56,551 nucleotides of DNA, filler included, from Stramenopiles sp. TOSAG23-2 (GCA_900128395.1; 5 parts of 5 records of this genome joined end to end with filler, not necessarily neighbours in it), one strand, 5' to 3'. Counted from the first letter of the whole stretch, positions 1 to 45,356 are shown. A program made the numbers and translations. Notes: generated by a model not told the origin, from the letters alone.

Positions 1-439
1 GTTGTTCTTACTGAAATTGGCAAAAAAAGTGTATATATATGTATCTATTGTTTTTACCTCCTTAAAAACACCTTATTCAGTGCTATAGTCATGTAGAATA
101 GGTACTCTTCAAAAGCAAACAGGGACACAGCATCATGCTGCAAAAAAATAAGAATTAGAATGCAAAAAAATGGAGTGATGTGCTGATGTGCCACCACACA
201 GACACAGAGGAGAGTGCGAGTTAGAGTGTGTGGTGCGACACAAAAAAAGAACACAGAAGATATATGAAAAAAGATATGAAATTTCAATACGACACAAGAG
301 TCCAACGCGACGCAGACTAATATATATACAACAATACCGAATCAATCCATCATCAACGCCACGTTAACCAATATATATATACATAACAACAATAAAAAAG
401 CAAAAATCACCCCAACCTAAAAAAAAATATATAAACAAT

Positions 440-1417
440 ATGAATTATCGCAACATTATCATCATTACAATTTGTGCTTATTTATATGCTGGTCCAGCAT
501 TTGAAGTCACAACTATTAAAGGTAAAACTGCATTAGTCACAGGTGGATCGCAAGGTTTAGGATTAGCAATTGCGAAAGATTTAGCAAAAGAAGGTGTTTC
601 AAAATTAGCTATATGTGCACGCAATATTGAAAAGGTAAATAAAGCAAAAGAAGCTTTGGCAATAGAATTTCCAAATGTAAAAGTATATGGCTTTCGTTGT
701 GATATTTCAGATAAATCGTCCCGTAATTTATTAGTAAAAGAATTATTTTCTGCTTTTAATAATAAACTTGATATTTTAATCAACAATGCAGGTGTTGAAA
801 AATGTTACCATTACGAAAAATATACAGAGGAAGATATTGAGATGCAAATGCAAATCAATAACAATGGTGCTGCGCAATTAACAAGGGCATTTATGCCTCA
901 AATGATTGAACGAAAAACGGGACATATTGTGATGATGTCTTCCATTTTAGGTCAAATACCTTGTGCATATTGTGCCATTTATTCCGCTACACGACATTTT
1001 ACATATGGATTAGCCATGTCTTTAAGAGGGGAAATGGCACATCGTCAAACTGGCGTAACAGTGCATTCAATACATCCAGGATTTATTGAAAATACTGGCG
1101 TATATAAAAACGTTCAAGATGATGTGAAAAAAGATACATCAGCACAAGAATTTCATATTCATTGGTTATTTGGTACAGGCGGACAAGATGTTGATACAGC
1201 AATTGCAGTATCAAAAATGATTAAAACAAATCAACCAGAAGTAATCATTAATACCCCACCATTGCGACCGACAATTGTATTATCGAAAATATTTCCACGA
1301 TTTTTCGATTATTTAGTTTATTATTGGCCTGGAACAGTTGATCCATTAGCAGATGCTATTAAATTAAGAGTGAATGGAAAGTTAAAAAGAGATACATTAG
1401 CAGTTTCTTCTGTTTAA
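440..1417 (+). CDS. Short-chain dehydrogenase/reductase (classical SDR) with N-terminal hydrophobic anchor
   Basis: TGGSQGLG Rossmann motif, DILINNAG, MMSS catalytic Ser, YSATR (YxxxK variant), IHPGFI; N-terminal IIIITICAYLY segment. Confidence 0.92.
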   Translation: MNYRNIIIITICAYLYAGPAFEVTTIKGKTALVTGGSQGLGLAIAKDLAKEGVSKLAICARNIEKVNKAKEALAIEFPNVKVYGFRCDISDKSSRNLLVKELFSAFNNKLDILINNAGVEKCYHYEKYTEEDIEMQMQINNNGAAQLTRAFMPQMIERKTGHIVMMSSILGQIPCAYCAIYSATRHFTYGLAMSLRGEMAHRQTGVTVHSIHPGFIENTGVYKNVQDDVKKDTSAQEFHIHWLFGTGGQDVDTAIAVSKMIKTNQPEVIINTPPLRPTIVLSKIFPRFFDYLVYYWPGTVDPLADAIKLRVNGKLKRDTLAVSSV

Positions 1418-11263: not shown

Positions 11264-11363
11264 NNNNNNNNNNNNNNNNNNNNNNNNNNNNNNNNNNNNN
11301 NNNNNNNTTAATTAATTAANNNNNNNNNNNNNNNNNNNNNNNNNNNNNNNNNNNNNNNNNNNN
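11264..11363. other. Artificial contig linker
   Basis: N44 + TTAATTAATTAA (stops in all six frames) + N44. Confidence 0.98.
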
Positions 11364-12608: not shown

Positions 12609-13246
12609 NNNNNNNNNNNNNNNNNNNNNNNNNNNNNNNNNNNNNNNNNNNNNNNNNNNNNNNNNNNNNNNNNNNNNNNNNNNNNNNNNNNNNNNNNNNN
12701 NNNNNNNNNNNNNNNNNNNNNNNNNNNNNNNNNNNNNNNNNNNNNNNNNNNNNNNNNNNNNNNNNNNNNNNNNNNNNNNNNNNNNNNNNNNNNNNNNNNN
12801 NNNNNNNNNNNNNNNNNNNNNNNNNNNNNNNNNNNNNNNNNNNNNNNNNNNNNNNNNNNNNNNNNNNNNNNNNNNNNNNNNNNNNNNNNNNNNNNNNNNN
12901 NNNNNNNNNNNNNNNNNNNNNNNNNNNNNNNNNNNNNNNNNNNNNNNNNNNNNNNNNNNNNNNNNNNNNNNNNNNNNNNNNNNNNNNNNNNNNNNNNNNN
13001 NNNNNNNNNNNNNNNNNNNNNNNNNNNNNNNNNNNNNNNNNNNNNNNNNNNNNNNNNNNNNNNNNNNNNNNNNNNNNNNNNNNNNNNNNNNNNNNNNNNN
13101 NNNNNNNNNNNNNNNNNNNNNNNNNNNNNNNNNNNNNNNNNNNNNNNNNNNNNNNNNNNNNNNNNNNNNNNNNNNNNNNNNNNNNNNNNNNNNNNNNNNN
13201 NNNNNNNNNNNNNNNNNNNNNNNNNNNNNNNNNNNNNNNNNNNNNN
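12609..13246. other. Intra-scaffold sequencing gap (638 N)
   Basis: Run of N without the linker sequence. Confidence 0.98.
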
Positions 13247-22610: not shown

Positions 22611-22710
22611 NNNNNNNNNNNNNNNNNNNNNNNNNNNNNNNNNNNNNNNNNNNNTTAATTAATTAANNNNNNNNNNNNNNNNNNNNNNNNNNNNNNNNNN
22701 NNNNNNNNNN
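22611..22710. other. Artificial contig linker
   Basis: N44-TTAATTAATTAA-N44. Confidence 0.98.
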
Positions 22711-22712
22711 TA

Positions 22713-22832
22713 AGTGGTGGAAATGCAACTAAAATTGAGGAAGCTGTAATTCAAGCATTGAATTCCATTTTAGGTTTTGTAATGCCATTATGTTCAACTT
22801 TGGGCTGGTATGATACGAACGATATGAAATAA
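22713..22832 (+). CDS. C-terminal fragment of an unknown gene at contig start
   Basis: Open frame SGGNATKIEEAVIQALNSILGFVMPLCSTLGWYDTNDMK* followed by UTR-like sequence. Confidence 0.4.
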   Translation, partial: SGGNATKIEEAVIQALNSILGFVMPLCSTLGWYDTNDMK

Positions 22833-22983
22833 AAAAGAGAGAGAAAGATAGGCCGAAAAGTGTATTTTATATGTGTGTGTGAGTGTGGTTTTTAATATAT
22901 TGATCTACAATGAAAATATATAACGAGTTACTGTATGAATATATGGAGAGAAAGATATTAATATATATACTCTTTTCTGCCTC

Positions 22984-24081
22984 TCACTTCTTTTTATTTC
23001 GTATTACACGTTGTTTACTTTTATTATTCTGTATCCGTCGTCTATTATTATTATTATGCATATTATTTCCATCATTTCTACTACCATTACCCAAACGTGA
23101 AGAACGATGAGCATTTGGATTATCAGTTTTACCCCATCGATTGATTACATTTCCAGTGTTTTGTCCACCACTACTTACATGCATTAATCGAACACTTCTT
23201 TCTGCACGCCCATTGTATGGTCTTGAAATTGGTGGTTGTTTTTGTTGCATAGCACGCATTGCATTCCGTTGTGCAACAATTGATCTATTGTTATTATTAT
23301 TATTATTATTATCAGTTGTTGATGATGATGATATCATTTGAAAATATTGATCTGAATTAATCATTCCACTTGAATACATTTCTTCTGGAGACATACCACC
23401 ATTATCATTATGACTACTAGACATGGTTAACGATTTCATACTGTGACTAATATTGCTTGTTCCTCCTCCTCCTCCTCCTCCTCCTCCATTAAATACACTT
23501 TGTTGAATATCACGATGTTCTGAAAATGGTTTAAATGCCATTCCAACCGTACGTCCTTCACGTCTACGTTCTTCTTTTGATTCAAAAGTTGTTTCATGTT
23601 CTTCATATTTACCATCACAACCTAAACATAAAAAATTAGATGTAAACAATCCACAACTACATGAATTACATGATTTTGTTACCGGGTCATGTAAAGTATG
23701 TGGACACCCACATCTACATTTCGCACGCCAACTATGTACATTAAAACCACGACGACGAACTAACCACCAATCACCAACTTCTTCTGGTCGTTTAGGAATA
23801 TATTCAAAACATTTACATTTACATTTTAAACAAGATGGTAATCTATCTTTCATTCTATGGTCAGAGAAATTGTGTCCACAAAAACAACGTGATTTATGAC
23901 CAACACGTGCACAATCTTGTTGATTACGTTTGCTTCTCCATGTTATGTATACACCCGTTTTAATAGCAAGTTGTGCTGCTAACATTTCTTCATCTATCAT
24001 TTTTCTACCACCAGCTGCAACACCATGTTTCGCTAATCCTTTTTTAATTGCAGGTATTGTCGTTGCTGCATTTCCTAACAT
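22984..24081 (-). CDS. FAM221: FAM221A/B-family Cys/His-rich protein
   Basis: DCARVGHKSRCFCGH, CKCKCFEYIP, WRAKCRCGCPHTLHDP, CLGCDGKYEEHETTFESKEER. Confidence 0.85.
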   Translation of the reverse strand: MLGNAATTIPAIKKGLAKHGVAAGGRKMIDEEMLAAQLAIKTGVYITWRSKRNQQDCARVGHKSRCFCGHNFSDHRMKDRLPSCLKCKCKCFEYIPKRPEEVGDWWLVRRRGFNVHSWRAKCRCGCPHTLHDPVTKSCNSCSCGLFTSNFLCLGCDGKYEEHETTFESKEERRREGRTVGMAFKPFSEHRDIQQSVFNGGGGGGGGGTSNISHSMKSLTMSSSHNDNGGMSPEEMYSSGMINSDQYFQMISSSSTTDNNNNNNNNRSIVAQRNAMRAMQQKQPPISRPYNGRAERSVRLMHVSSGGQNTGNVINRWGKTDNPNAHRSSRLGNGSRNDGNNMHNNNNRRRIQNNKSKQRVIRNKKK

Positions 24082-24804
24082 GATGTTTTAAAATTATTTC
24101 TTGTTTTTTTCTAATAATATTTATTATCCGTACATATAAGACTGTTTAGTATTAAACTGGATGTGATTAAGAAAGATTATAATATATATTATTTATAAAA
24201 TCTGTTTTTGATATATAAATTCAACGTCTTACAAAGCAGTTCTATCTATTTCAAAATATAATATTTGTAATATATATAATAAATATAATAATAATAACGT
24301 CCAAAAAAAAAGCTAAAGCCAAAAGCCCAAAAGCCCAAAATTAAATGGATTTCCCTTATATTATTTCCGGGATTTATTCTCCCGACTATCCCTAATTTAA
24401 AATTCTAATTCCACTATACCTGTGGTACTCTGTATTGAAATAACTAAATAAAATATGGTAGGAATATTACTACTATCAATATATACGAGAGTCGTGTTTC
24501 CAACATGTTTAAATGATGTGGTAATGATACGTGCATACTGGCATACCCTGCTTCAGTTTGTTTCGTTTGTTTGTTCCACGTGTGCACATTTGCCTTTTGG
24601 TCTCAAAACAAACCGTTACATTTTTTTTCATCTATTTTTAGTCCGAATTATAACTAAAGAATTCCATGGCAACTTTTGGCCAAAATTTTTTGATAGGAAC
24701 TTACGATATTACTATACGACTGTTTGGTGTTGGCTTGGAACAACATTTGCGTTGGAATAATAAGTAAGAATGTAGAATATGGAATGTAAACATATATAGA
24801 TATA

Positions 24805-25161
24805 GTGGTAGATATAGTACGTGGTATCTTGACATGGTTCATGTTCCGTATTATATTACAAAAATCGATCAAACAATCAATGAAATTATTGCACGTAGAC
24901 ATTAATTTTGTATTTCAAAGTGTCAATAAAATTCGAGCCATTTTAGCATTGGTAACCGCATGCACTAAATTGGGAAGAAAGGCTTCCAAAGTGCAACCTA
25001 CGAATGATATTATGGAAATTAAAGATACCGTTGATAGCGTAAAGGATGACGTGGGTGACATCAAAGACTCAGTGAAGAAACTGAACAAAAGGGAAGAACT
25101 GCTAAGAGAGAAAGAAAAAAAGAAAGAAAAAACTCCTGTTATTCAAACATTCGATATCTAG
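24805..25161 (+). CDS. Hypothetical membrane-protein-like C-terminal fragment or pseudogene
   Basis: 118-aa ORF with hydrophobic start and heptad tail (IKDTVDSVKDDVGDIKDSVKKL); I could not find a frame-compatible splice to the upstream ORFs. Confidence 0.3.
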   Translation: MVDIVRGILTWFMFRIILQKSIKQSMKLLHVDINFVFQSVNKIRAILALVTACTKLGRKASKVQPTNDIMEIKDTVDSVKDDVGDIKDSVKKLNKREELLREKEKKKEKTPVIQTFDI

Positions 25162-25983
25162 GCCAACGTTCTATTATCTCACATTTATGTGCCCCACAAA
25201 ACTAGCTTGGGGCTTGGGAATTCAAAGACGTTCAGGGATACCTACAACGGATTGGGGATTCCACTACGCATATTTGTTTTAAAACCATCTTCATAATCAT
25301 TTCACTTTAAACTGTGTATGCGAGAAGAGTCACGATATATATATATACTCTACCGACGGTAGTGGGATATCAAAAAATATAAATTCTATAAAAAATAAAA
25401 AAAAATTATTATCCTCCGAAGTTGTTTTTAAGGGTTTTGTCCAAAATTACTACTTGCGAGATGTAACTATATTTTTGAATTTATTCTAGCTAGGCCGTAA
25501 TAGCATTAGAAACATGATACTAAGCCTATTTGTATGATAGCCAATACCACCAGTTTCAGCGATCATTCTTTGATTTTTAGAATATCTTTTTCTTTTTACG
25601 CCACATTATACCAGGTAACATCATACGCACAGTATAATGTATAATCAGCACAGTGCTTTTCATCGTGATCTATTTTAATTTATTCAGGTTCATCTGAAGG
25701 TTTGTAATGCTATTTACCTATTATTATTACTCGCGCCGAAACTTCTTCTGCTTTTGAAAAAAAATCATTTTTACAAAATTTATAATACGATGTACACAGC
25801 ATTAGACTAAATCGAGAGAGCCTCACATTTTTCATTTTCTATACTGTATATATATCTATCTCTCTCTCTCTAGATACACACACACATAGAGTGTGATCAT
25901 CATACATGTAGATATAGATATAGTATTATTATTCAATAAAGAAAGAATATATCAACAAGAATAAAAAAAAAAAACCAACAATC

Positions 25984-27432
25984 ATGAAATTTGCAGTATT
26001 ATGTTTATTTGCATTAGTTGCTGTATGTGCAGCTAAAGAAGGACGTCAATTGAAATTGATGACTTCTATCACTATCGATTTAGACAGTGAGGAACATACC
26101 CCAAAAACAAAATGGGCAGCGTTCAAATCCGTATTTAACAAAGTATACAACACTTTGGAAAAAGAAGCAAAAGCAATGGAAGCATTCGCAGTAAATGATG
26201 CATTCATCGTTGCACACAACAAAGAAGGACATTCATACACCGTTGGCCATAACGAATTCTCTGACATGACCAACGCAGAATTCAAAGAAACAATGACTGG
26301 ATACAAAACCAAAGATAGCTACTTGCGCCGTACTAAAAATGTTGACGAAACATTAAATGCTAAATTTGCATCTGCACCTGATAGTGTAGATTGGAGCACA
26401 AAAGGTGCTGTAACCCCAATCAAAAACCAAGGACAATGCGGTTCATGCTGGGCATTCTCAACTACTGGTTCCACCGAAGGTGCATACGCAATTGCAAGTG
26501 GTAAATTAGTTAGTTTATCTGAACAAGACTTAGTTGACTGTGATAAAGTTGACCATGGTTGCCAAGGTGGTTTAATGGACAATGGTTTTGATTTCATCAA
26601 GAAGAACGGTGGTATTGCAACTGAAGAATGTTACCCATACACTGCAGCTGACGGTACATGCAACACGAAATGTGCACCAGCTGTTACTATCACCGGACAT
26701 ACCGATGTTAAACATATGGACGAAAAAGCACTTGTAGCAGCTATTGCTGGCCAACCAGTTAGTGTAGCAATTGAAGCTGACAAACCAGCATTCCAATTTT
26801 ACAAATCTGGTGTATTTGATAACTCTGGTTGTGGTACACAATTGGACCACGGTGTATTAGCAGTTGGTTACGGTACCGACTCTGGTAAAGATTACTACAA
26901 AGTTAAAAACAGTTGGGGTGCAACATGGGGTGACCAAGGTTACATCATGATTATCCGTAACAAAAATATGTGCGGTATCTCCCAAGAACCATCCTTCCCA
27001 ACAGGCGCAAAAAAAGCATCCGGCCCAGCTCCAGGACCATCCCCAGGCCCAGCTCCAGGACCATCCCCAGGCCCAGCTCCAGGACCATCCCCAGGCCCAT
27101 CCCCAGGACCACCAGGAAAAACCCACTATGGTGATCCATTCGACGGTCCATGCATGAGCGGTGAAGTTAATGTAACTGTTACCGGTGTTGCTGGTTCATT
27201 TTGCTCCCCAGAATGTACACTTGGTATCTTTTGCCCAAAAGACGTACCAGCAGGCGTAACGGCAAAACCACAATGTGCATTACAAGACCAAAAAACACAA
27301 TCCAAATACTGTGCATTGATCTGCTCCCCAAGTACTGATGAATTATCCTTACGTGCTGGTGATGCACAATGTGGTGCTAAAGCAAGTTGTAAAGCAATCA
27401 GTGGTGTTGGCTTATGTACTTATGATGAATAA
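25984..27432 (+). CDS. Cathepsin L-like papain-family (C1A) cysteine protease with Pro-rich linker and Cys-rich C-terminal extension
   Basis: Signal peptide, I29 prodomain (NEFSDMT), QGQCGSCWAFS, LDHGVLAVGYG, VKNSWG. Confidence 0.97.
   Translation: MKFAVLCLFALVAVCAAKEGRQLKLMTSITIDLDSEEHTPKTKWAAFKSVFNKVYNTLEKEAKAMEAFAVNDAFIVAHNKEGHSYTVGHNEFSDMTNAEFKETMTGYKTKDSYLRRTKNVDETLNAKFASAPDSVDWSTKGAVTPIKNQGQCGSCWAFSTTGSTEGAYAIASGKLVSLSEQDLVDCDKVDHGCQGGLMDNGFDFIKKNGGIATEECYPYTAADGTCNTKCAPAVTITGHTDVKHMDEKALVAAIAGQPVSVAIEADKPAFQFYKSGVFDNSGCGTQLDHGVLAVGYGTDSGKDYYKVKNSWGATWGDQGYIMIIRNKNMCGISQEPSFPTGAKKASGPAPGPSPGPAPGPSPGPAPGPSPGPSPGPPGKTHYGDPFDGPCMSGEVNVTVTGVAGSFCSPECTLGIFCPKDVPAGVTAKPQCALQDQKTQSKYCALICSPSTDELSLRAGDAQCGAKASCKAISGVGLCTYDE
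27022..27114 (+). repeat. 24-nt coding tandem repeat (GPAPGPSP)x3 plus partial copy
   Basis: ggcccagctccaggaccatcccca at 27022, 27046, 27070. Confidence 0.95.
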
Positions 27433-27988
27433 ATGAATTATTATTCAGATTTTTTATTTAATATATAGATATATATACTGATAGAAATCAAAAGAACAAA
27501 CGTTCTTATCATTTGTTATATACAGTATATACACGCATTACTAATATTTAATTTATATTTCAAAATTTAACATCGCAATATGCATTTTAAATTAACGTAT
27601 AATTGAATATATGCATATTATTATGAAACGGTACATGAAATATATATCAGTTTTAATATATATATTTCTTGGCGTGTTCGGCTTAAAAACGAAATGAGAA
27701 AGAATGCAAACAAACAAACCAAACAAAGAAAAATATTTTTAAATGAAAAGTGAAAAGAAAAATTTATGTGCACATGATGTGTGTATTTAAATTTTAATAT
27801 TTGGCTTGAAGAGAGATTATTTTTACAAGAAGAAGAAGAGTATAAAAATATTTATCCTCAAACTATACCATATATTTACATTTAAAAAGTCTTTTTACAT
27901 TTTGGAAAAATGTACGAGTATAATATTATATACGAAAATATATTACACATACATTTACACACACAACCACAATATTATACGAAGAGAT

Positions 27989-28185
27989 TCAATCTTCATC
28001 TTCTGAATCTATGATATCATCATTTTCATCAAAATAATTTGCAATTCCGCCTTTTGAACAAAAAAGATCAATGATCTCTTGATGACGAATTGGACTATAT
28101 TAATATCTCATTAACACGATATTATAGTAACAATTGTCCAACAGAGTTTCTCCATCGATGTTCTCCTTATTCATACAAATGTATA
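27989..28185 (-). pseudogene. Degenerate ankyrin-repeat C-terminal remnant
   Basis: MNKENIDGETLLDNCYYN, then SPIR in a second frame and KEIIDLFCSKGGIANYFDENDD...* after a further frameshift. Confidence 0.45.
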
Positions 28186-28347
28186 CCCCTCTCGCATCTC
28201 GCATACCACATTATATACACACACGCACATATATATAAAATTACAAATTAGTAATGTACGGTGTTTCAGTTGTTTGTTTTTCACATGATTTATGATATAT
28301 ACAAATGTATCAGCACGTCTTATATCACATAATATATATTAATAAAT

Positions 28348-29070
28348 CTATATCTCTCTCTTTGTACTCTTTAGCGGAGCATATTTTTGAAACAATTGTT
28401 CTTGCTCAGCAGCTAATTGTGCTTCTTCTTCTGGTGTCAATTTTTTCTTGAAAAACTTTCGTTTCTTTTTAGCTCTAGCCTTTGCTTCGTTTCGTGATAT
28501 TTTTTTCGAAAAAGCATATTCGTTTTTCCTCTTTTTCTTTATCTTCTTTTTAACATTATTATTATTATTATTATCTACAGGTACAGTTGTTGTTTCTTCA
28601 TGCTTTACCAGTACCTTCTTACGTATTATCTGCGATGAAGATCCAGTATTTTTTTTAAGACGGAAATCACTTTCTTCGGGAAGAATAACTGCTTTTACTT
28701 GTTTCACTACATATTCTTTATATTCAGTTAACCCTAGATCATCTAACGCACGAATAACAAAATCAGCGTTAACATATTTTCTTTTTTTCATTTGTCCTTT
28801 TGTATTTCCATCTTTAAAGCATACATCTCCACTTTCAGAAGCAACCATTTCGATAAATTCGACGCAGCATGTATGTAACATTTGCAAAAATTTCTTCTCT
28901 AAAATCATTCTATTGATGTTACCCTCTATTTCATGTTTTTTCTTTTTCTTTTTCCTTTTTTTTTTATTATTAGTTGATGTTGAATTTTTATTTAATTCAT
29001 CTTTTATCATATCATTGCCAATATTTCTTACCACCTTTCGCAATGCATCAATTGAAATATTAGAATCCAT
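28348..29070 (-). CDS. DR1: NC2-beta/Dr1-like histone-fold protein
   Basis: CCVEFIEMVASESGDVC, YVNADFVIRALDDLG, C-terminal PEEEAQLAAEQEQLF. Confidence 0.8.
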   Translation of the reverse strand: MDSNISIDALRKVVRNIGNDMIKDELNKNSTSTNNKKKRKKKKKKHEIEGNINRMILEKKFLQMLHTCCVEFIEMVASESGDVCFKDGNTKGQMKKRKYVNADFVIRALDDLGLTEYKEYVVKQVKAVILPEESDFRLKKNTGSSSQIIRKKVLVKHEETTTVPVDNNNNNNVKKKIKKKRKNEYAFSKKISRNEAKARAKKKRKFFKKKLTPEEEAQLAAEQEQLFQKYAPLKSTKREI

Positions 29071-29418
29071 CTTACTTTTGGAATAAATATTTCTTTCTTT
29101 CTGTCTCCTCTTTATATATGTTAATTTTTGTCAAACGCTTCTCAGTAATGGATTATAGTACATAAATACATTGCATTTTATTTGCTTTCGCATTTTATTA
29201 TAATGTAGTATGCGTTTGTTGTTATTTCATTTATTTATTATTCTTCTATTAGTACCTGGTGGTAATATATAAATTCAAAATTTATTAGATTTAATAAAAA
29301 TTCAATTTTATAATAATAATAATAAAGTAAAAGTATAGAAAAAATAGACAAAAACTTAAACTTCAGAAATAGAAAACAAAGATACAAACAGACACTTTTA
29401 ATTTTTCAAAAAAAATCA

Positions 29419-31320
29419 ATGAAAACAATAACTATGTATCATAATTTCAACATTTTATTAATAATAACAGTTTTTATTTTTTTACTATCACAAGGTTTGT
29501 CACATGCAAAAGAATGGCCTTTTAATTATTCCGCAATAAATGTCTGGCCATTGCCAATAAATGTAACTTTACCATCTAATCCACTTGGGCCTCACGTAAT
29601 AAATATTGCAGAGGCAACAATTGACCCATCATGTGATATACAAATAGCTACACTGGCAACAGAAGCATTGCACCTTGCCACGGTATTTTTAGCACCTGTA
29701 CAAACATATGCAGAAGAGCCATACGCAACTCGTCGCAACGCTGAATGTACAAAACGTTGCATGAAAGATATGGATTGTAATAATGGAAAATGTTATGTAA
29801 AATCAAATATAAGATGGAATTCTACCCATCCATGTTCACCATCTTCTGCTTTTAATGCACCATGTGGATGTTGTACTACCTCACCATCGTTACCCGAAAT
29901 TAATGAATTGATAATAAATTGTAATACCCCAAGTGCTTTTATAAATAATAATAATGATAATAAAGATACCTATAAAAAAAACAATAATTTTGTAAAACAA
30001 GAAATGTATGAAATTGATATATCTAATAATAACAAGATAATAATTAATTCCTATTCATCGCACGGAGCTGCAAATGCCCTTAGTACTTTAGCTCAAATAT
30101 TTCGATATGATACGATATTGAAAAATCATGTGGTAGATATTGTCCCGCTTTATATATTTGATGCACCATTGCATGAATGGCGTGGGTTTATGTTAGATAC
30201 TTCAAGGCATTTTATTCCAAAAAGTATTATATTGAATTTAATTAAAGCAATGAGTGCATCGAAATTAAATGTTTTTCATTGGCATATGGTTGATTCTCCA
30301 TCGTTTCCTTATGAATCTGAAAAATATCCTGAATTATCAAAAGAAGGTGCATGGGGTCAATCCATGAAAAATGTATATACAAAAGAAGACATACAAAATG
30401 TGGTTGCATACGGGAAGAATAGATATGTTAAAATTATGATAGAAATTGATACACCAGCCCATACGCTTTCTATTGCTAGGAGTCATCCTGAAATGATGCC
30501 TGACGGTTGTTTCGAATGGATGGCTAATTCACAATATAAAATTGATGTCGATTCAGATGATTGTATGGCAATTGACCCAACGAATGATGCTGCAAGGACA
30601 ATGGTTGCCAACTTACTTCAAGAAGTTGCTGAACTAGTTGGAGAGGAAGGAACACATATACATATAGGAGGAGATGAAGTGAAATTCGATTGTTGGAGAG
30701 CCTCTGAAGCAATCAATAATATCGTGACAAAACGTTATGGAAATACTAGCGATGCTTCTTTTTCCATGTTACAAGCAGAATGGACAGCTAATGTTACTGG
30801 AAAAGCTATTATTGATGCAAAGAAAAAAGTCGTATTGTGGCAACCAACTACATTAGGTCCAGGGGATCCAGCATGGGATGGAAAATTACCTAAGGATGCC
30901 GTATATATGGTCTGGTTGAATGAGGAAAGTGCAGCTGCATATGCAAATTCTGGATCAGATGTTATTGTTACAACTCCATATTATGTAGCTGGAATGGGTT
31001 CATCTGGTTGGTTAGATGTGTATAATGCTGATTTGTTACCATCGGGTTTAAAGCCTGGTGCGGAAAAACATATATTAGGTGGTGAAATATGTATGTGGGG
31101 TGAAAGTTTAAATCAAGGAAATTTAGCAATGCGTAGTTTACAAATTGGAGCAGCTGCAGCAGAGCCATTTTGGCGCAAAAACAATAAAGGCAGTGGCCCC
31201 GGTTCCCCAAATGGTGTTGGTTTATCTGATCGTTACAACAGATTTCTATGCTACCTTTCCCGTTTTGGTATAGAAGTACCTCCAATTATGCCAAGTTATT
31301 GCGATGTTGTTGTTGGTTGA
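29419..31320 (+). CDS. Beta-N-acetylhexosaminidase (GH20), secreted/lysosomal
   Basis: Signal peptide, VWPLP, WRGFMLDTSRHF, LNVFHWH, EIDTPAH, HIGGDEV catalytic pair, ILGGEICMWGE. Confidence 0.96.
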   Translation: MKTITMYHNFNILLIITVFIFLLSQGLSHAKEWPFNYSAINVWPLPINVTLPSNPLGPHVINIAEATIDPSCDIQIATLATEALHLATVFLAPVQTYAEEPYATRRNAECTKRCMKDMDCNNGKCYVKSNIRWNSTHPCSPSSAFNAPCGCCTTSPSLPEINELIINCNTPSAFINNNNDNKDTYKKNNNFVKQEMYEIDISNNNKIIINSYSSHGAANALSTLAQIFRYDTILKNHVVDIVPLYIFDAPLHEWRGFMLDTSRHFIPKSIILNLIKAMSASKLNVFHWHMVDSPSFPYESEKYPELSKEGAWGQSMKNVYTKEDIQNVVAYGKNRYVKIMIEIDTPAHTLSIARSHPEMMPDGCFEWMANSQYKIDVDSDDCMAIDPTNDAARTMVANLLQEVAELVGEEGTHIHIGGDEVKFDCWRASEAINNIVTKRYGNTSDASFSMLQAEWTANVTGKAIIDAKKKVVLWQPTTLGPGDPAWDGKLPKDAVYMVWLNEESAAAYANSGSDVIVTTPYYVAGMGSSGWLDVYNADLLPSGLKPGAEKHILGGEICMWGESLNQGNLAMRSLQIGAAAAEPFWRKNNKGSGPGSPNGVGLSDRYNRFLCYLSRFGIEVPPIMPSYCDVVVG

Positions 31321-31538
31321 GTGAAAAAAGGACACGCGATACGCGAACCTTGGGTAAAAAATTTATATATAATACGAAGTACGTACGAAGCGTTCGTAAA
31401 AAAAATCTACCAAGCGGAGACACTATTTTTATTACCACACGTAATGTATGATATAATAAATATGATAATGCATAATCATATGAATATGATATGATATGGA
31501 AAAATATGTACTTTTTACGAGTACTCGTTACAATGTCC

Positions 31539-33935
31539 CTAATCCTCCTCCCACCATTCATTCGTATCCTCTAACAAAACATCCATAACGTTTCTGCTAC
31601 GAACATCTTCTTCCTCTGCTGGTTCATCTTCTACTACGATATTCTCCTCTAAATTTATCGACGATGATGCTTCAACTTCCATCTCTACCAATTCATCCAA
31701 TTTTCTTCTTCTAGATCCTTTTGTAAAGATTTTTTCAATAATCTCGTCTACTTTTTCCTCCATCTCTAGGTTCATTGCATCAAATTTCATTGCCTCTCCT
31801 ATTAATCGATACAAACGCGTATTTCGATGTAAATGGGTACGTTCAAATATCTTTTGTAAATGTTTAAGTAAATCTGTTTTCTCAAACATGGAATCAACAA
31901 CTTCATGCATCATATGCTTTGCTTCTTTCTTCCATACTGATTGATCGCCATTTCCAGAAATCAATTCCCGTGGAACTCCAGCTCGAAAACGTTTATCTTG
32001 ATCTATCTTTATACCTAATGCTTTATAATATGCTTCAATTATATGATCATGTCTAAAAAATTCACCCGCACCAAATAAAGCTTCCCATGTTGTTGATAGA
32101 TGAGCATCATTCATAACTTCCACCCCCACAGTTAAATGTATCGATGATTCCATCCAATCCATACTTGATGTTTTCTCTTCATCATTCATTTTTCCATCTG
32201 CATAATATGTTTTTTTCCAAAATACCATGATTGTATTATCTAACCAATTATGAGTAGTTGCTGTGCTTCGGAAATATAACGACAACTCCAAATCGTATAC
32301 AAATCCACGTTTTACCATTTGTTGAATTACATAAGGATTGTCTTGTTCATTACAATGCCCTGTACCACCTTGGCCGATCTTAGCCCAAGTTAAAATAACG
32401 CCTTTTCTACTTGCACGTTGTAAATTATCAAAAAATATAGATTCGTATTCTTTCGGAATATGTTCACCAACCTCAACGCTTATGGCCCAATCTTGTACTA
32501 AATTTTTGCTTTGAAAATCGATTTTTGTACTTAAATCCATCCAACACATATGTGGCACAACATATGTGTTTCTATTTGTAAGCAATCTAACTTGTTCACC
32601 TACGAACTCTTCAATATTTTGACCGCCATCAAATCCATGCCATTCAATATTAGAATCAATGTTCTTTAGATAAAAGCCTAATTGTCCAATACCAGCTCCT
32701 AAATCAATTACGGATTGGCCATCCAAAAAATCATTGATGGCATTACCAAAGCCACTGTCAAATTCAACATGATTTTTAAAAATAAAATCCTTTGTATAAA
32801 ACCATCCACCATTGTCTTGTATTTTTCCAGATGCAGATTTCTCTAATAGTACCTCATCTTTTCCATCATTCTTCGGTTTAAATGGGCATGTTTTTTCCAC
32901 TCTATTATTATTACGTTTTTTGTTTTCATCGTTTATTGTAGGAGGCGTTGATGTTGTATGCAAACAACCACGTGGTACAAATAATATATCACCAGGATTT
33001 AATACAACATCTAAAAAAGGTTTTCCTAAATCTGATATATAGACTTCATCACCTTCATCGCGCCCTCTTATATGACGATATCGCACGGGTAATTCTAGTT
33101 CATCGTACATCCATAATCTCCAACGTTTTTTCCCATGTAATTGTACCATAAATGACCCTTGGAAATCCGTATGTGCACTTAATGACTTTTTAACATTTGG
33201 TGGAGTTATGTACATATTGATATTAACAGGACGTTGGCTCGAACGAGACAATTGGAATGCGAATCGTGCAGCAAATTTATCAGAACGTTGTATACCAAGA
33301 AATTGTAAAGTATAACCAAACTGCAATGCACGTATAATATCTCTCTCATCATGGTTTTCTCGTTTACTTTCCATACGATTTGCAAATGTTTTTTTCATAT
33401 AATTAATATTTCGGAATGGAGGTGTATTTATTCTATTTTTTGAATAGACATAACTACTCTTTGCAGCAGTTGTTAGTATGGTACGGAATGTAATTTCAGA
33501 ACAAATTGAGCAATTGTTTATTAAATGTATCAACAATGGGTTTTTTTCCCAATAGACGGAGCTAAAATTACCATTATATACAAATTTATGAAATGCAACT
33601 AAATCATTTAATTCCATTTCATTATTATAACTATTGTTAGTTTCAACAAACTTCTTTACATCAGATGGTATAAATCGATCTCTTTTACCAGTTGCTGCAT
33701 CTGTATCTTTGTTTTCAGCAATTTCATAAAAATTATTTGGAGATAACTGTGCATTCAATCGATTATTATATCTAAGTGGAGGCAATGGAAAACCTTTGAA
33801 TTTTTTAAATTTTCCAATATTATTATTATTATCAATACTAGCATCAACATTGTAGTTAAAAACTAATGCATCTAAATTTTCTAAAACACGCAAATTAATT
33901 GGTTCTAATTTATACGCTCGTTTAAAAGCTTTCTC
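31539..33935 (-). CDS. JmjC/cupin-4 (NO66/MINA53/ycfD-like) oxygenase with inserted class I SAM methyltransferase; 5' partial
   Basis: NMYITPP, HTD, QLHGKKRWRLW, LNPGDILFVPRGCLH, SIHLTVG; VIDLGAGIG, SVEVGEHIP, GQGGTGHCN; frame open to the linker (EKAFKRAYKLEPINLRVLENL, TPR-like). Confidence 0.88.
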   Translation of the reverse strand, partial: EKAFKRAYKLEPINLRVLENLDALVFNYNVDASIDNNNNIGKFKKFKGFPLPPLRYNNRLNAQLSPNNFYEIAENKDTDAATGKRDRFIPSDVKKFVETNNSYNNEMELNDLVAFHKFVYNGNFSSVYWEKNPLLIHLINNCSICSEITFRTILTTAAKSSYVYSKNRINTPPFRNINYMKKTFANRMESKRENHDERDIIRALQFGYTLQFLGIQRSDKFAARFAFQLSRSSQRPVNINMYITPPNVKKSLSAHTDFQGSFMVQLHGKKRWRLWMYDELELPVRYRHIRGRDEGDEVYISDLGKPFLDVVLNPGDILFVPRGCLHTTSTPPTINDENKKRNNNRVEKTCPFKPKNDGKDEVLLEKSASGKIQDNGGWFYTKDFIFKNHVEFDSGFGNAINDFLDGQSVIDLGAGIGQLGFYLKNIDSNIEWHGFDGGQNIEEFVGEQVRLLTNRNTYVVPHMCWMDLSTKIDFQSKNLVQDWAISVEVGEHIPKEYESIFFDNLQRASRKGVILTWAKIGQGGTGHCNEQDNPYVIQQMVKRGFVYDLELSLYFRSTATTHNWLDNTIMVFWKKTYYADGKMNDEEKTSSMDWMESSIHLTVGVEVMNDAHLSTTWEALFGAGEFFRHDHIIEAYYKALGIKIDQDKRFRAGVPRELISGNGDQSVWKKEAKHMMHEVVDSMFEKTDLLKHLQKIFERTHLHRNTRLYRLIGEAMKFDAMNLEMEEKVDEIIEKIFTKGSRRRKLDELVEMEVEASSSINLEENIVVEDEPAEEEDVRSRNVMDVLLEDTNEWWEED

Positions 33936-34035
33936 NNNNNNNNNNNNNNNNNNNNNNNNNNNNNNNNNNNNNNNNNNNNTTAATTAATTAANNNNNNNNN
34001 NNNNNNNNNNNNNNNNNNNNNNNNNNNNNNNNNNN
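33936..34035. other. Artificial contig linker
   Basis: N44-TTAATTAATTAA-N44. Confidence 0.98.
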
Positions 34036-37000
34036 AGATCAGAAAAGGATAAAATTAATAAAATTCTAACCCCATTATTCGCAAAATATCGCATTGACAT
34101 ACAGCATGTAGCAAAACTAGAGAAAGATTTAAATACTTATAAATCTAATTTGCAAGCGGAAAAACTATTTTTAGATAAGTTAAGCTCTAAAAATACAGAT
34201 CTTAAAAATGAAATTAGTCAATCGGAAAGTTTATTTCAAGATACTGGTGCAAACGTGAAGGCAATGACAAAATTATCAGACGAATTCCAAGACATCAAAC
34301 GAGTATGGTTCAGTAGGCAGGAATCACTTTCTAAGATTTTCAATGAACAAACAGTTACAGATTTAGCAATTTCTACTATATTTATGGTTTACATCGGCCA
34401 TGCTAATGAAGCTGGTAGAGATCTTCTTTTATGCAATGCTGCTTCAATTTTGGTTGAACATGGATTTCCAATTCAGAAGGAGAAACGTAAGTTTTACACT
34501 GATTTTAACATTGATAAGTTATATGTTTCAATGGAGAGACAATTTCTGAGTAAGGCCATAATGCAAAACTGGAAAACTAATGGTCTTTTTGACAATGATT
34601 CTCATAATTTTGTCAGTTGTATTGGATGCCACTGTTTATCAAAAAAGTATATCCCTATTTTGTTGGACCCTTCCGAATACGGTAAAACTTGGTTAGAACG
34701 TACGCTTACACAGCAACAACTTTCACATGTAAAAAAAATAAACAGTGAAGAGAATTACAATGAAATGGGTGAAGTAGATGTGCTCCAATTTATATTCGAT
34801 GCAAATAAATTTGAAGTAAAAGATGTAGATCTAGCTATTTCCAATAATTATCCAATTGTTTTTACGAATGTAAATTGCGAATGTATTTCGTCATATTTAA
34901 TAGAGTTAATAGAAAAGAAACCTGCCTCAGGTTTATTTTTATGTACGAAATCTGTGGAACCACATGTATCCTTCGCTTTATGTGAATACGACGTCATAAC
35001 ATTTAATTTTGCGGAAACAGCAAATGTAGTTAAAGGACAAGTCTTTGAAGGACTGCTTAAGTATAAAAACAATGATAGATTTAGGAAATATAAATCTTTC
35101 ATGATGGAATTACTAAAGGAGGAAAATGACTTAGATAAAATAGAGCAGAACATTATGAAGATATTGACCAACTGCGACACTAGTATTGTGGATGATGTTT
35201 CAAAAAGCGAAGTTTTGTTACTGATGAACCTCAAATTAGCGCATGACAATTTACGAAGAGTTATTTTATCAAGGAAAGAAACTATTTTAAGTATTAAAAC
35301 AGCAAATCATATAACTGTGAATTCATTGAGCAAATTTTATATACGTACTAAGCAACTTAAATCGATTTGCTACCTGTATCAATTTTCAATTATAGAATTC
35401 TTAGATCGTGTAAAAAATTCGATGAAAGTATATTATCAAAAAAAAAGACAAGTAGGCATGGAAGATGAAAATAAAGAAAATTTGAATATTGTTACATTGA
35501 TAAAGAATTTTCCAGTATTTATGTTATACCAAGTCTTTTTATGGGTTGACAATGTTCTTTTCTTTCGACATAGATACGCATTTGTATTTCTTCTGGCGTT
35601 GGATCATCTTGTAAACATAGTTGAAATTACCCAAGAAGACCTTGACTTGTACATTGCACATGGCGGATTTTCTGCAGTTCATAGCAGTAGCGAGCAGGAC
35701 GACGACGATGATACAGATGCCGATGGTAAAAATAAAAAAAGGAATGATTATCCATTAATACATTCTCTATGGTTGAGCAGTTCCTCCTGGTGTTGCCTCA
35801 AAAATATGAAGAAGCTGGCTGGAATGCAGACTTTAATTAACAGTTTAAAAGAGAAAACCAGTAACGTTGCTTGGGAAACGTGGTATAGTAACTCTATCAA
35901 ACATGGCAACATAGCAGAATTTCCTGTTTTGCAGTCTAGTTTTACCTCTAGTTCTTTTTTAAAAGTCGTTTTCATCACGTCTATAAATCACCCTTTAGCT
36001 TTTAAATGCATACAATCTTTCATTGAACAAACATTAAATCCAATATTTTTAAATGATCATTATGTTAGAATCAAAGATATATACAACGAATCAGCGGAAA
36101 AACAGTTAATATTACTAATTAGTGGCAGCTTATCCGATACCATAGCTGAAGTTGAACGAATAAGTATGCGCAAGCGAATTAAATCTAAAATTATCGACTT
36201 TCATAGCAAAGAAAAATGTAATAATGTAACAGAAGACGTCGAAACTTCGAAACGGAACGGGAATTGGTTAATATGCGACTGCGTAACTTTTGATGTTCAA
36301 ATAATGAATCAAATACTGGATATAATCAATACTGAGAAAGCTTCTACACATGAAAATTTTAGATTATGGGTTTGTACTACAGAAACTGCTTGTCGTCTAC
36401 GACACAAGCAACCATCATTTCCTGAGAAATGGATTATACAATCAGAAAAATATGCAATAGAAATTGCTGAAAATGCTGGATTGGCAATGAAAAATATGTA
36501 TATAAACAATTTTTATATACGAGAGTCATATGTACATGTTGAAAATTTAAGATGGAAAAAAATGCTATACATTATAACTTTATTTCACTCTGTAGTAATC
36601 AATAAATCATTTATTGGAAGTGAAGATAACAATGAAAACTTATTATTGGATTTGAATAGGACAAACTTGAACTCAAGCTTAGCGGTCTTAGAGGCTACAT
36701 TAGAAAAAATGCCAAATGAGACAGATCCTGTGGATAGCCGTTTCGTATCTCTCATAGTAGGTGAAATAATTTATGGTGGATACGCACAAGAGTTAGGCAT
36801 GTTAAATGAGTTTATTGAATTAGGAAATCATTTATTTGTCAATAAAGTTGATAGATCAGAAAAGGATAAAATTAATAAAATTCTAACCCCATTATTCGCA
36901 AAATATGACATTGACATAGACAAATCGTTTAGAACATTTGAAAAGATGCACAAATTTATTATTGAAAATAATACTAATAGTTTCAATGATTTGAGTGACG

Positions 37001-37110
37001 AAATGTTGATGAAAATTGGTAGAGTTAATATTATGGACGAACAAAAACATAAAAAATCATTTCATCATATGAAAGAGATAATCGATTTTGTAAATGCCGT
37101 GTTTAGATAA
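34036..37110 (+). CDS. Divergent dynein heavy chain-like protein, C-terminal part (stalk end, AAA5, AAA6); 5' partial
   Basis: WKTNGL, PILLDPSEYGKTWL, LYQFS, GNWL, HENFRLW, FP..IIQ, LFHSVV, GEIIYGG in dynein order. Confidence 0.75.
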   Translation, partial: RSEKDKINKILTPLFAKYRIDIQHVAKLEKDLNTYKSNLQAEKLFLDKLSSKNTDLKNEISQSESLFQDTGANVKAMTKLSDEFQDIKRVWFSRQESLSKIFNEQTVTDLAISTIFMVYIGHANEAGRDLLLCNAASILVEHGFPIQKEKRKFYTDFNIDKLYVSMERQFLSKAIMQNWKTNGLFDNDSHNFVSCIGCHCLSKKYIPILLDPSEYGKTWLERTLTQQQLSHVKKINSEENYNEMGEVDVLQFIFDANKFEVKDVDLAISNNYPIVFTNVNCECISSYLIELIEKKPASGLFLCTKSVEPHVSFALCEYDVITFNFAETANVVKGQVFEGLLKYKNNDRFRKYKSFMMELLKEENDLDKIEQNIMKILTNCDTSIVDDVSKSEVLLLMNLKLAHDNLRRVILSRKETILSIKTANHITVNSLSKFYIRTKQLKSICYLYQFSIIEFLDRVKNSMKVYYQKKRQVGMEDENKENLNIVTLIKNFPVFMLYQVFLWVDNVLFFRHRYAFVFLLALDHLVNIVEITQEDLDLYIAHGGFSAVHSSSEQDDDDDTDADGKNKKRNDYPLIHSLWLSSSSWCCLKNMKKLAGMQTLINSLKEKTSNVAWETWYSNSIKHGNIAEFPVLQSSFTSSSFLKVVFITSINHPLAFKCIQSFIEQTLNPIFLNDHYVRIKDIYNESAEKQLILLISGSLSDTIAEVERISMRKRIKSKIIDFHSKEKCNNVTEDVETSKRNGNWLICDCVTFDVQIMNQILDIINTEKASTHENFRLWVCTTETACRLRHKQPSFPEKWIIQSEKYAIEIAENAGLAMKNMYINNFYIRESYVHVENLRWKKMLYIITLFHSVVINKSFIGSEDNNENLLLDLNRTNLNSSLAVLEATLEKMPNETDPVDSRFVSLIVGEIIYGGYAQELGMLNEFIELGNHLFVNKVDRSEKDKINKILTPLFAKYDIDIDKSFRTFEKMHKFIIENNTNSFNDLSDEMLMKIGRVNIMDEQKHKKSFHHMKEIIDFVNAVFR

Positions 37111-45256: not shown

Positions 45257-45356
45257 NNNNNNNNNNNNNNNNNNNNNNNNNNNNNNNNNNNNNNNNNNNN
45301 TTAATTAATTAANNNNNNNNNNNNNNNNNNNNNNNNNNNNNNNNNNNNNNNNNNNN
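45257..45356. other. Artificial contig linker
   Basis: N44-TTAATTAATTAA-N44. Confidence 0.98.

Follow-up and report, generated by a model that had tools for sequence, protein, structure and literature searches.

A class I SAM-methyltransferase domain nested in the JmjC fold of a putative secretory-pathway protein from Stramenopiles sp. TOSAG23-2

Can the barrel of a JmjC oxygenase hold a complete second enzyme within one of its hairpins, and if so, what might such a protein do? The question is raised by one gene on the minus strand of a 56,551-nucleotide stretch of DNA (filler included; hereafter the window) from Stramenopiles sp. TOSAG23-2 (GCA_900128395.1). The window is made up of five pieces, each about 11.2 kb long, with N44-TTAATTAATTAA-N44 linkers between them (joints at 11264-11363, 22611-22710, 33936-34035 and 45257-45356), and since these linkers are artificial, genes flanking a linker are not genomic neighbours. 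The gene sits in the piece 22711-33935. An initial annotation, made from the sequence alone, had proposed that an S-adenosylmethionine (SAM) methyltransferase is inserted inside its JmjC fold and that hydroxylation and O-methylation are potentially coupled. Here we present strong support for the insertion of the methyltransferase in the hairpin between strand 7, which carries the distal His of the JmjC metal site, and strand 8.

The JmjC barrel and its interruption

The reading frame stays open over 799 codons, in DNA with a G+C content of about 31%. At residues 219-316 it matched the Pfam family JmjC_2 (PF08007) with a score of 60.7 bits (cut-off 22, E 1.3e-16), and it also matched Cupin_8. 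JmjC_2 was likewise above cut-off in four relatives (P0002, the open reading frame (ORF) of contig L002, P0004 and P0008). The length of the open frame, the JmjC_2 score and the 2960 relatives of the insert described below argue that the frame is not a product of chance. Among PDB chains the best solved relatives were NO66 (3.6e-10) and MINA53 (7.6e-09), and the hidden Markov model alignments to both end at the distal His. Invariant columns of a 16-sequence alignment include N226, Y228, T230, H241, D243, K256, R257, R308 and H312, so that the Fe(II) triad HxD...H (H241, D243, H312) is invariant. A basic residue in strand 4 of JmjC proteins binds 2-oxoglutarate (2OG), and proteins belonging to the MINA/No66 clade carry an HxT motif in strand 8 (Iyer et al. 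2010, PMC2938197). In the window protein K256/R257 of GKKRWRLW are invariant and lie in a strand by predicted secondary structure (E255-260), and both the HxT (H586-L-T588) and the Arg between strands 6 and 7 (R308) are present. On account of the published HxT motif, SIHLTVG is assigned to strand 8; in relatives with and without the insert alike, its S584, H586, T588, V589 and G590 are nearly invariant. As judged by sequence, the gene encodes a NO66/MINA53-type JmjC oxygenase.

Un-inserted relatives do exist. Of 18 JmjC relatives returned by a database search, 14 (P0004-P0017; 511-666 aa, 31-43% identity) can be aligned to the parts that flank the insert on either side. From the distal His to the Ser of SIHLTVG there are 271 residues in the window protein, as against 10-43 low-complexity residues in these 14. 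The gap of about 270 aa described in the initial annotation is thus accurate, whereas the 10-15 residues that it took as normal are too narrow a range for these relatives.

The insert is a complete class I SAM-methyltransferase domain, as had been supposed from its motifs, with a flexible linker of about 20 residues at each end. An exhaustive search found 2960 proteins at E<=0.001 (best 1.3e-112, 30 below 1e-30). Residues 336-560 (CPF...MVF) can be aligned over their full length with stand-alone proteins of 230-300 aa, to which they are about 45-50% identical, and many of the relatives are stand-alone proteins of about 270 aa. The family profile matched phosphoethanolamine N-methyltransferase in the PDB (7.2e-07), motif I being aligned to motif I, and 39 of 74 aligned family members matched Methyltransf_23 at E<=0.01 (best 2.5e-07). 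An AlphaFold2 (AF2) model of the insert built on 74 sequences had a predicted local distance difference test score (pLDDT) of 88 and a predicted template-modelling score (pTM) of 0.85. With this model, Foldseek found at least 500 matches in the PDB (E<=0.001); among the matches listed all were methyltransferase folds, the best being ChlM (4qdj, 2.2e-07), with template-modelling scores (TM) up to 0.67 when normalised by target. Placement in the class I superfamily follows from this fold and the profile search, not from a Pfam cut-off. Motif I (D397-L-G-A-G-I-G403) is kept, and D422 in GFDGG is the acidic residue past strand 2. Residues G84, G86, G88 and D107 of the insert's own numbering are nearly invariant in the 74-member alignment, and the window copy keeps 21 of 21 nearly invariant columns, among them motif I and H478 (residue 163 of the insert).

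Structure prediction places SIHLTVG as the strand completing the cupin barrel, in agreement with the initial annotation. In a full-length AF2 model residues 584-590 are predicted as a strand, and VIA-align superposed this model on NO66 (4y4r_B) with Z 14.0 and a root-mean-square deviation (rmsd) of 3.8 over 277 aligned residues, at a structural-alignment identity of 15-18%. As the alignment spans model 99..698 (chain 188..564) with only 277 residues aligned, about 320 residues are skipped. The minimal JmjC protein JMJD5 aligned up to model residue 592 (Z 8.6, rmsd 3.7, 187 aligned). Helices occur at 603-742 of the model (regional pLDDT 50-70), with the NO66 alignment reaching model 698 (chain 564-580); a phmmer comparison of residues 579-724 with the PDB gave no meaningful match, the best being a DEAD-box helicase (0.24).

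Residues 95-318 and 580-745 were also folded as two separate chains with ESMFold2, along with three controls. The score was 0.76 (runs 0.53, 0.76 and 0.77) against 0.01 for the best of the three controls; in a benchmark of this score, 51 of 78 solved complexes attained that value, as did 2 of 108 mismatched pairs. The runs had at least 24% of contacts in common, with a partner pLDDT of 38-46. Residues 582-595 contacted 219-232 and 243-256, and the contacts of least error joined 585-591 with 223-229 and 248-253 (expected error 0.5-0.6 Å). In a double-stranded beta-helix, strand 8 has its place between strand 1 and strand 3. The contacts with 223-229 and 248-253 put SIHLTVG between the NxYxT strand and the strand that follows HxD, which is the place of strand 8. 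Since JmjC structures have already been solved, passing this two-chain comparison signifies likeness to them and is not independent proof.

Contigs, conservation and origin of the insert

The stretch was present in 20 of 24 listed runs from 13 studies, mostly marine metagenomes, and the occurrence of the gene in marine metagenomes and metatranscriptomes of these studies indicates that the organism is widespread. The junctions were checked in four runs, where contigs were taken as evidence of contiguity, not of expression level, and where the parts of the gene left uncovered in three of the four carry no meaning. No joint or splice was seen at either junction in these four runs. A metatranscriptome contig of 3113 nt spans 31540-33935 without a joint at about 99% identity. 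In a second study, polyA-RNA contigs span the downstream junction (31618-32514 and 31816-32352) and span or reach the upstream one (32794-33105 and 32569-32876). Another study has a DNA contig that spans 32364-33935, and a metagenome contig (L001, 3404 nt) carries the entire gene at 99% identity with no stop. Thus, RNA contigs from two studies as well as DNA contigs cross both junctions unspliced, and the methyltransferase segment is kept in the RNA contigs, not spliced out. The gene is real and expressed, and its nested architecture is very probably real too.

Length differences in the contigs aligned to the window were all in frame, namely six more bases after position 32902 (linker 1) and a three-base difference near 31599. 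The former amount to two additional Asn codons in related strains and the latter to one codon absent in a related strain. In-frame length polymorphism of low-complexity sequence was observed among strains at 32889-32945, about 33830-33850 and 31542-31600; P0002 is without the 7-residue SIDNNNN segment (about 33830-33850), and L001 has the C-terminus ...EDTNE, without the last WWEED. The match of the 3113-nt contig to the window ends exactly at the stop codon (31540) and is followed by 477 nt of unlike sequence, which may reflect a rearrangement in the strain, an alternative 3' end or contig chimerism. In another run, a polyA-RNA contig tracks the window to 31524.

The same architecture was found in a related species. 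A 5.9-kb contig (L002) carries a single uninterrupted frame of 861 aa, in which anchor, tetratricopeptide repeat (TPR), JmjC part 1, methyltransferase, SIHLTVG and helices follow one another as in the window gene. Identity between the two is 74% in JmjC part 1, 61% in the methyltransferase core and 67% in strand 8 with the helices (residues 582-700), compared to 19% in linker 1, 25% in linker 2, 34% in the region N-terminal of JmjC and 29% in the C-terminal tail (residues 701-784). P0003 matches the N-terminal part of L002, and P0041 is close to its C-terminal part but differs near the C-terminus. P0020, which is 70% identical in the methyltransferase core and runs from JmjC through the insert into SIHLTVG, is probably a third nested form; it has a garbled stretch just N-terminal of the insert that resembles a gene-model error. 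Because the junctions are spanned by independent contigs and a second species, probably also a third, shares the architecture, the gene is not a random chimera, as had been argued from the precise in-frame position of the insert.

In a tree of 74 family members, the window insert and P0020 formed a clade (SH-aLRT, the Shimodaira-Hasegawa-like approximate likelihood ratio test, 99) within a 17-row clade (98) of stand-alone proteins. Nesting of this clade among stand-alone proteins indicates that the insert derives from a stand-alone methyltransferase family. Mixed alignments of JmjC relatives and stand-alone methyltransferases misplaced the un-inserted post-insert part within the insert and were not used. 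We propose a single insertion event in a common ancestor of at least two to three marine protist lineages. The donor would have been a member of the stand-alone, membrane-anchored methyltransferase family of about 270 aa, and the target may have been the loop that is long and of low complexity in the un-inserted relatives.

JmjC proteins have been described with domain insertions in their N-terminal region or in the segment joining strand 4 to strand 5 (PMC2938197). A full-text literature search, supplements not covered, returned no description of a methyltransferase or other catalytic domain nested between JmjC strands 7 and 8, nor of a family combining TPR, JmjC and an xxEL end; Iyer et al. 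cite supplementary architecture lists that are possibly relevant (PMC2938197). Both domains belong to known superfamilies, and the nesting between strands 7 and 8 is a variant. The strand 7-8 hairpin thereby also tolerates a whole second enzyme, which bears on protein engineering and on the origins of multi-domain enzymes.

Compartment, glycan context and proposed function

The frame runs open to the piece end at 33935, directly followed by a joint, and the window gene is thus 5' truncated; the ORF start given earlier at 33893 is wrong. Residues 97-888 of P0002 (888 aa) were placed on 33935-31542 by tblastn at 97.5% identity, and full-length forms (P0002 and L001) have 883-888 aa. The 5' part beyond the piece end, as seen in P0002, comprises a hydrophobic N-terminal anchor and a TPR-like repeat, of which the window retains the last 14 codons; the TPR-like end noticed upstream of JmjC in the initial annotation is indeed present. 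Pfam matches to TPR_2/TPR_8/TPR_1 were below threshold in P0002 (residues 79-109) and in the L002 ORF, and the profile of the un-inserted relatives matched TPR structures (OGT 7e-12, designed TPR proteins). A hydrophobic N-terminal window was found in 12 of 16 members of the JmjC family, and the C-terminus is xxEL or xxDL in 10 of 14 un-inserted members. With N-terminal hydrophobic anchors and mostly xxEL/xxDL ends, a nucleolar role of the NO66/MINA53 type is unlikely.

Glycosyltransferases are fused to the insert's relatives or lie beside them, and this indicates sugar methylation, the glycan linkage being a feature of the relatives and not of the window gene itself. Among 23 scanned relatives, glycosyltransferase (GT) domains were above cut-off in three (GT31/Fringe, GT29 and GT11, eukaryote-like), GT25 was just under cut-off in one further, and three had FkbM methyltransferase fusions. 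We also scanned eight phage-like/viral or bacterial-looking loci, chosen for their long flanks from 16 with ORFs listed among 80 fetched. A glycosyltransferase was fused, adjacent or at most two genes away in all eight, and sugar-nucleotide genes (NeuB, cytidylyltransferases, DegT) often accompanied the homologue. Domain 3 of PBCV-1 A064R and A061L are class I sugar methyltransferases for protein-linked glycans, fused to or beside glycosyltransferases (PMC9614988). The insert relatives show like fusions and neighbours, compared here by description, not by sequence; the PBCV-1 proteins differ in being cytoplasmic viral proteins, none of them nested in another domain.

Two of the homologous loci are described for their own sake. 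The phage-like L034 (20-3704) has five Methyltransf_24 genes on one strand, interrupted by one glycosyltransferase-like gene, and continues with the insert homologue, more glycosyltransferases (GT7C/GT2, PLOD-type GT) and a gene like those of NUMOD3 homing endonucleases; so dense a cassette for methylation and glycosylation is unusual. In the bacterial-looking L069 (2786-4267), beside a TonB-dependent receptor, the methyltransferase homologue carries a fused Core-2/I-branching (GT14) domain.

With moderate confidence, we propose that the gene encodes a secretory-pathway protein hydroxylase that captured a glycan-type methyltransferase, glycan methylation being the weakest link of the proposal. 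Both domains would be active enzymes, since they retain their motifs for metal, 2OG and SAM. The protein would act in the lumen of the endoplasmic reticulum (ER) or Golgi, where the JmjC part may hydroxylate a side chain of secretory proteins recruited by the TPR, as in AspH or P3H1, and the methyltransferase part may methylate glycan sugars on the same substrate class. Lysyl hydroxylase 3 (PLOD3), a lumenal enzyme with several functions, catalyses consecutive steps in a single modification of proteins. The window protein could be a multi-step modification enzyme in this manner, its own hydroxylation product not being methylated; lysyl hydroxylase 3 differs in its tandem domains, its second activity, which is glycosyl transfer, and its oxygenase family. 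In AspH and P3H1 (LEPRE1) the parts follow one another likewise (membrane anchor or signal, then TPR, then the oxygenase domain), with a KDEL end in P3H1 (PMC6817910, PMC3352923), but they are classical 2OG oxygenases (Asp_Arg_Hydrox, P4Hc), not JmjC proteins, and are without a methyltransferase. The likeness is architectural and probably convergent. The language-model look-alikes of P0008 were clusters of TPR with Asp/Asn hydroxylase (0.82), a lead on architecture only.

The fusion serves as a Rosetta stone, tying together two little-known groups, the TPR-JmjC protist family with its ER-retrieval-like ends and a large family of membrane-anchored methyltransferases near glycosyltransferases, and suggests that both protist families work on the same secretory substrates. 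A literature search at listing level named no microalgal enzyme for glycan methylation; for this activity in microalgae the insert family is only a candidate.

Several observations weigh against this account. As to the compartment, the criterion for a hydrophobic N-terminus, 17 residues with a hydropathy >=1.8, is a crude one, and no more than about half (66 of 138) of the methyltransferase relatives beginning with M pass it; one of the methyltransferase relatives ends in HAEL. The inserted forms are without xxEL, ending in EWWEED (window), DGWEELI (L002) and ASTL (P0041), and with this end lost their compartment is less clear than that of the un-inserted relatives. The glycosyltransferase-linked homologues are distant, being about 50% identical over about 90 residues only and located on phage-like/bacterial contigs. 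The window insert is below every Pfam methyltransferase cut-off (MTS 13.9 bits against 23, Methyltransf_31 11.9 against 27). The full-length AF2 model, from a shallow alignment, has a mean pLDDT of only 51.9 and a pTM of 0.44, and no inter-domain geometry was drawn from it; the position of SIHLTVG likewise comes from models of low confidence. Synonymous to non-synonymous substitutions among near-identical strains were 11:17 in the best-covered contig and 4:8, 2:3 and 4:6 in others, counts which are too few and mixed, with no clear purifying selection at that scale. Besides, an un-inserted paralogue may be present in the same organism.

The initial annotation suggested a more direct coupling, in which a residue hydroxylated by the JmjC part would be O-methylated at its new hydroxyl by the nested methyltransferase, giving a methoxy amino acid on a protein. 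We consider this unlikely, although two catalytic domains in one fold, with short linkers and conserved together in at least two species, would suit it. ALKBH8 holds an oxygenase and a methyltransferase that act in sequence on one substrate within one polypeptide. The TYW5-TYW4/TYW2-3 proteins likewise join an oxygenase and a SAM methyltransferase for one substrate, TYW5-TYW4 being a fusion of sequential activities in some species (PMC2938197). These fusions are, however, tandem and not nested, are cytosolic with tRNA substrates, and use other oxygenase (AlkB, TYW5/FIH clade) and methyltransferase families; Pfam found no RNA-binding module of the ALKBH8 type in the nested protein, whose oxygenase is JmjC_2 and not AlkB-type. 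Relatives of the insert are linked to glycosyltransferases, not to oxygenases, and among the best 150 of them a JmjC part occurs only in the JmjC-flanked fragments P0020 and P0041. Moreover, no model of usable confidence brings the two active sites near each other. What stands of the proposed nested enzyme is therefore the nesting, by fold, contigs and conservation, while the coupling has nothing but physical linkage in its favour and the relatives suggest sugars. That a side-chain hydroxyl, made by the JmjC half on a cell-surface or secreted protein, is methyl-capped by a barrel-borne methyltransferase a few nanometres away, a protein modification new to secretory pathways, seems quite improbable. 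If true, methoxy amino acids would be expected on the cell surface or scales of marine protists, and the un-inserted JmjC family together with the stand-alone protist methyltransferases would represent a split version of the pathway.

It is also doubtful that the protein has a single activity, either because the insert is a passenger or non-catalytic module (a SAM- or sugar-binding regulatory or lectin-like one) or because one of the domains is a pseudoenzyme. The Pfam scores under cut-off and the loss of the xxEL end in inserted forms are consistent with such a module, as are the strain variants T511I/A, C514Y and D518N within the conserved GQGGxGHxNE stretch. These variants, however, leave H513, N515 and E516 intact, and the window copy retains all of the nearly invariant family columns. 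Neither the JmjC triad nor the basic residues of strand 4 vary, and between species both domains are conserved far above the linkers, all of which argues for two working domains.

An intracellular ribosomal oxygenase like NO66 or MINA53, with a methyltransferase for ribosomal protein or RNA, is very unlikely compared to the secretory-pathway hydroxylase proposed here. NO66 (RIOX1), MINA53 (RIOX2) and YcfD are the closest solved relatives; they have JmjC_2, are the best sequence and fold matches, and share with the window protein the HxD...H, the strand-4 basic residue, the Arg between strands 6 and 7, the HxT of strand 8 and a C-terminal helical extension. The window family differs from them in its anchor, its TPR-like repeat, its xxEL ends (in un-inserted members) and, in the nested forms, the 270-residue insert before strand 8. 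The low identity to NO66, the hydrophobic N-termini and xxEL/xxDL ends counted above, and the glycan context of the insert relatives speak against a ribosomal role, and so do extracellular members of the clade in Monosiga (PMC2938197). Finally, an assembly chimera, retained intron or spliced-out segment, for which the artificial concatenation of the window and the garbled stretch of P0020 might be invoked, is hardly credible, as contigs cross both junctions without a joint, L001 and L002 carry the whole frame stop-free, and the insert is in frame, 61-70% conserved between species and itself a full family member.

Feature coordinates and neighbouring genes

Parts of the gene and of the encoded protein are collected in Table 1. 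All motifs quoted in the initial annotation (HTD, PGDILFVPRGCLH, DLGAGIG, GFDGG, EVGEHIP, GQGGTGHCN and SIHLTVG) lie on the minus strand where it had placed them, and the codon that it gave for the distal His indeed encodes H312.

Table 1. Parts of the nested JmjC-methyltransferase gene, in positions of the window
Feature	Position	Strand	Basis or remark
Coding region, nested JmjC-methyltransferase gene	31539..33935	-	ORF list, translation, tblastn; stop codon 31539-31541
TPR-like repeat, last 14 codons (EKAFKRAYKLEPIN)	33894..33935	-	sequence; remainder beyond piece end
JmjC part 1, residues 95-316, N-terminal strands and barrel up to distal-His strand	32946..33611	-	Pfam, PDB matches, invariant columns
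NINMYITPP, JmjC part 1	33198-33224	-	
HTD (H241-x-D243)	33165-33173	-	
GKKRWRLW, JmjC part 1	33111-33134	-	
PGDILFVPRGCLH, residues 300-312, ending in distal H312	32958-32996	-	H312 codon 32960-32958
Linker 1, residues 317-335, low complexity (PPTINDENKKRNNNRVEKT), length-polymorphic	32889..32945	-	pLDDT 56-60
Inserted class I SAM-methyltransferase core, residues 336-560, CPFKP to TIMVFW (225 residues)	32214..32888	-	
DLGAGIGQLG, motif I of methyltransferase	32676-32705	-	
GFDGG, methyltransferase	32622-32636	-	
CWMDLS, methyltransferase	32529-32546	-	
DWAISVEVGEHIP, contains EVGEHIP, methyltransferase	32454-32492	-	
GQGGTGHCNEQ, methyltransferase	32343-32375	-	
Linker 2, residues 561-581, KKTYYADGKMNDEEKTSSMDW	32151..32213	-	pLDDT 58-70 in insert model
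SIHLTVG, residues 584-590, last JmjC barrel strand (strand 8), HxT = H586-x-T588	32124..32144	-	
JmjC part 2, residues 591-745, conserved helical extension (TTWEALFGAGEFF, DKRFRAGVP, further helices)	31659..32123	-	
C-terminal tail, acidic, poorly conserved, ends EWWEED, no xxEL end	31542..31658	-	pLDDT about 30-34

The neighbour of the gene in the window is a GH20 hexosaminidase gene on the opposite strand (29419-31320). A dynein-like ORF at 34150-37110 had been considered as a gene neighbour and was dropped, as it lies in another piece of the window. Synteny with L002 is partial, window 25984-27432 (+) and 28348-29070 (-) corresponding to L002 2-718 (+) and 1327-1818 (-). The shared order is a papain-family protease, a small lysine-rich gene on the other strand and then the JmjC-methyltransferase gene; the protease has a PSPGP-repeat linker and a Cys-rich tail in both. 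In the window the GH20 hexosaminidase gene intervenes, and the JmjC gene is inverted relative to L002.

Elsewhere in the window, 12609-13246 is a separate run of 638 N. The ORF at 22984-24081 (-) has a FAM221 domain (9e-18), of a kind of protein on which there are few studies, together with poly-Gly and poly-Asn tracts.

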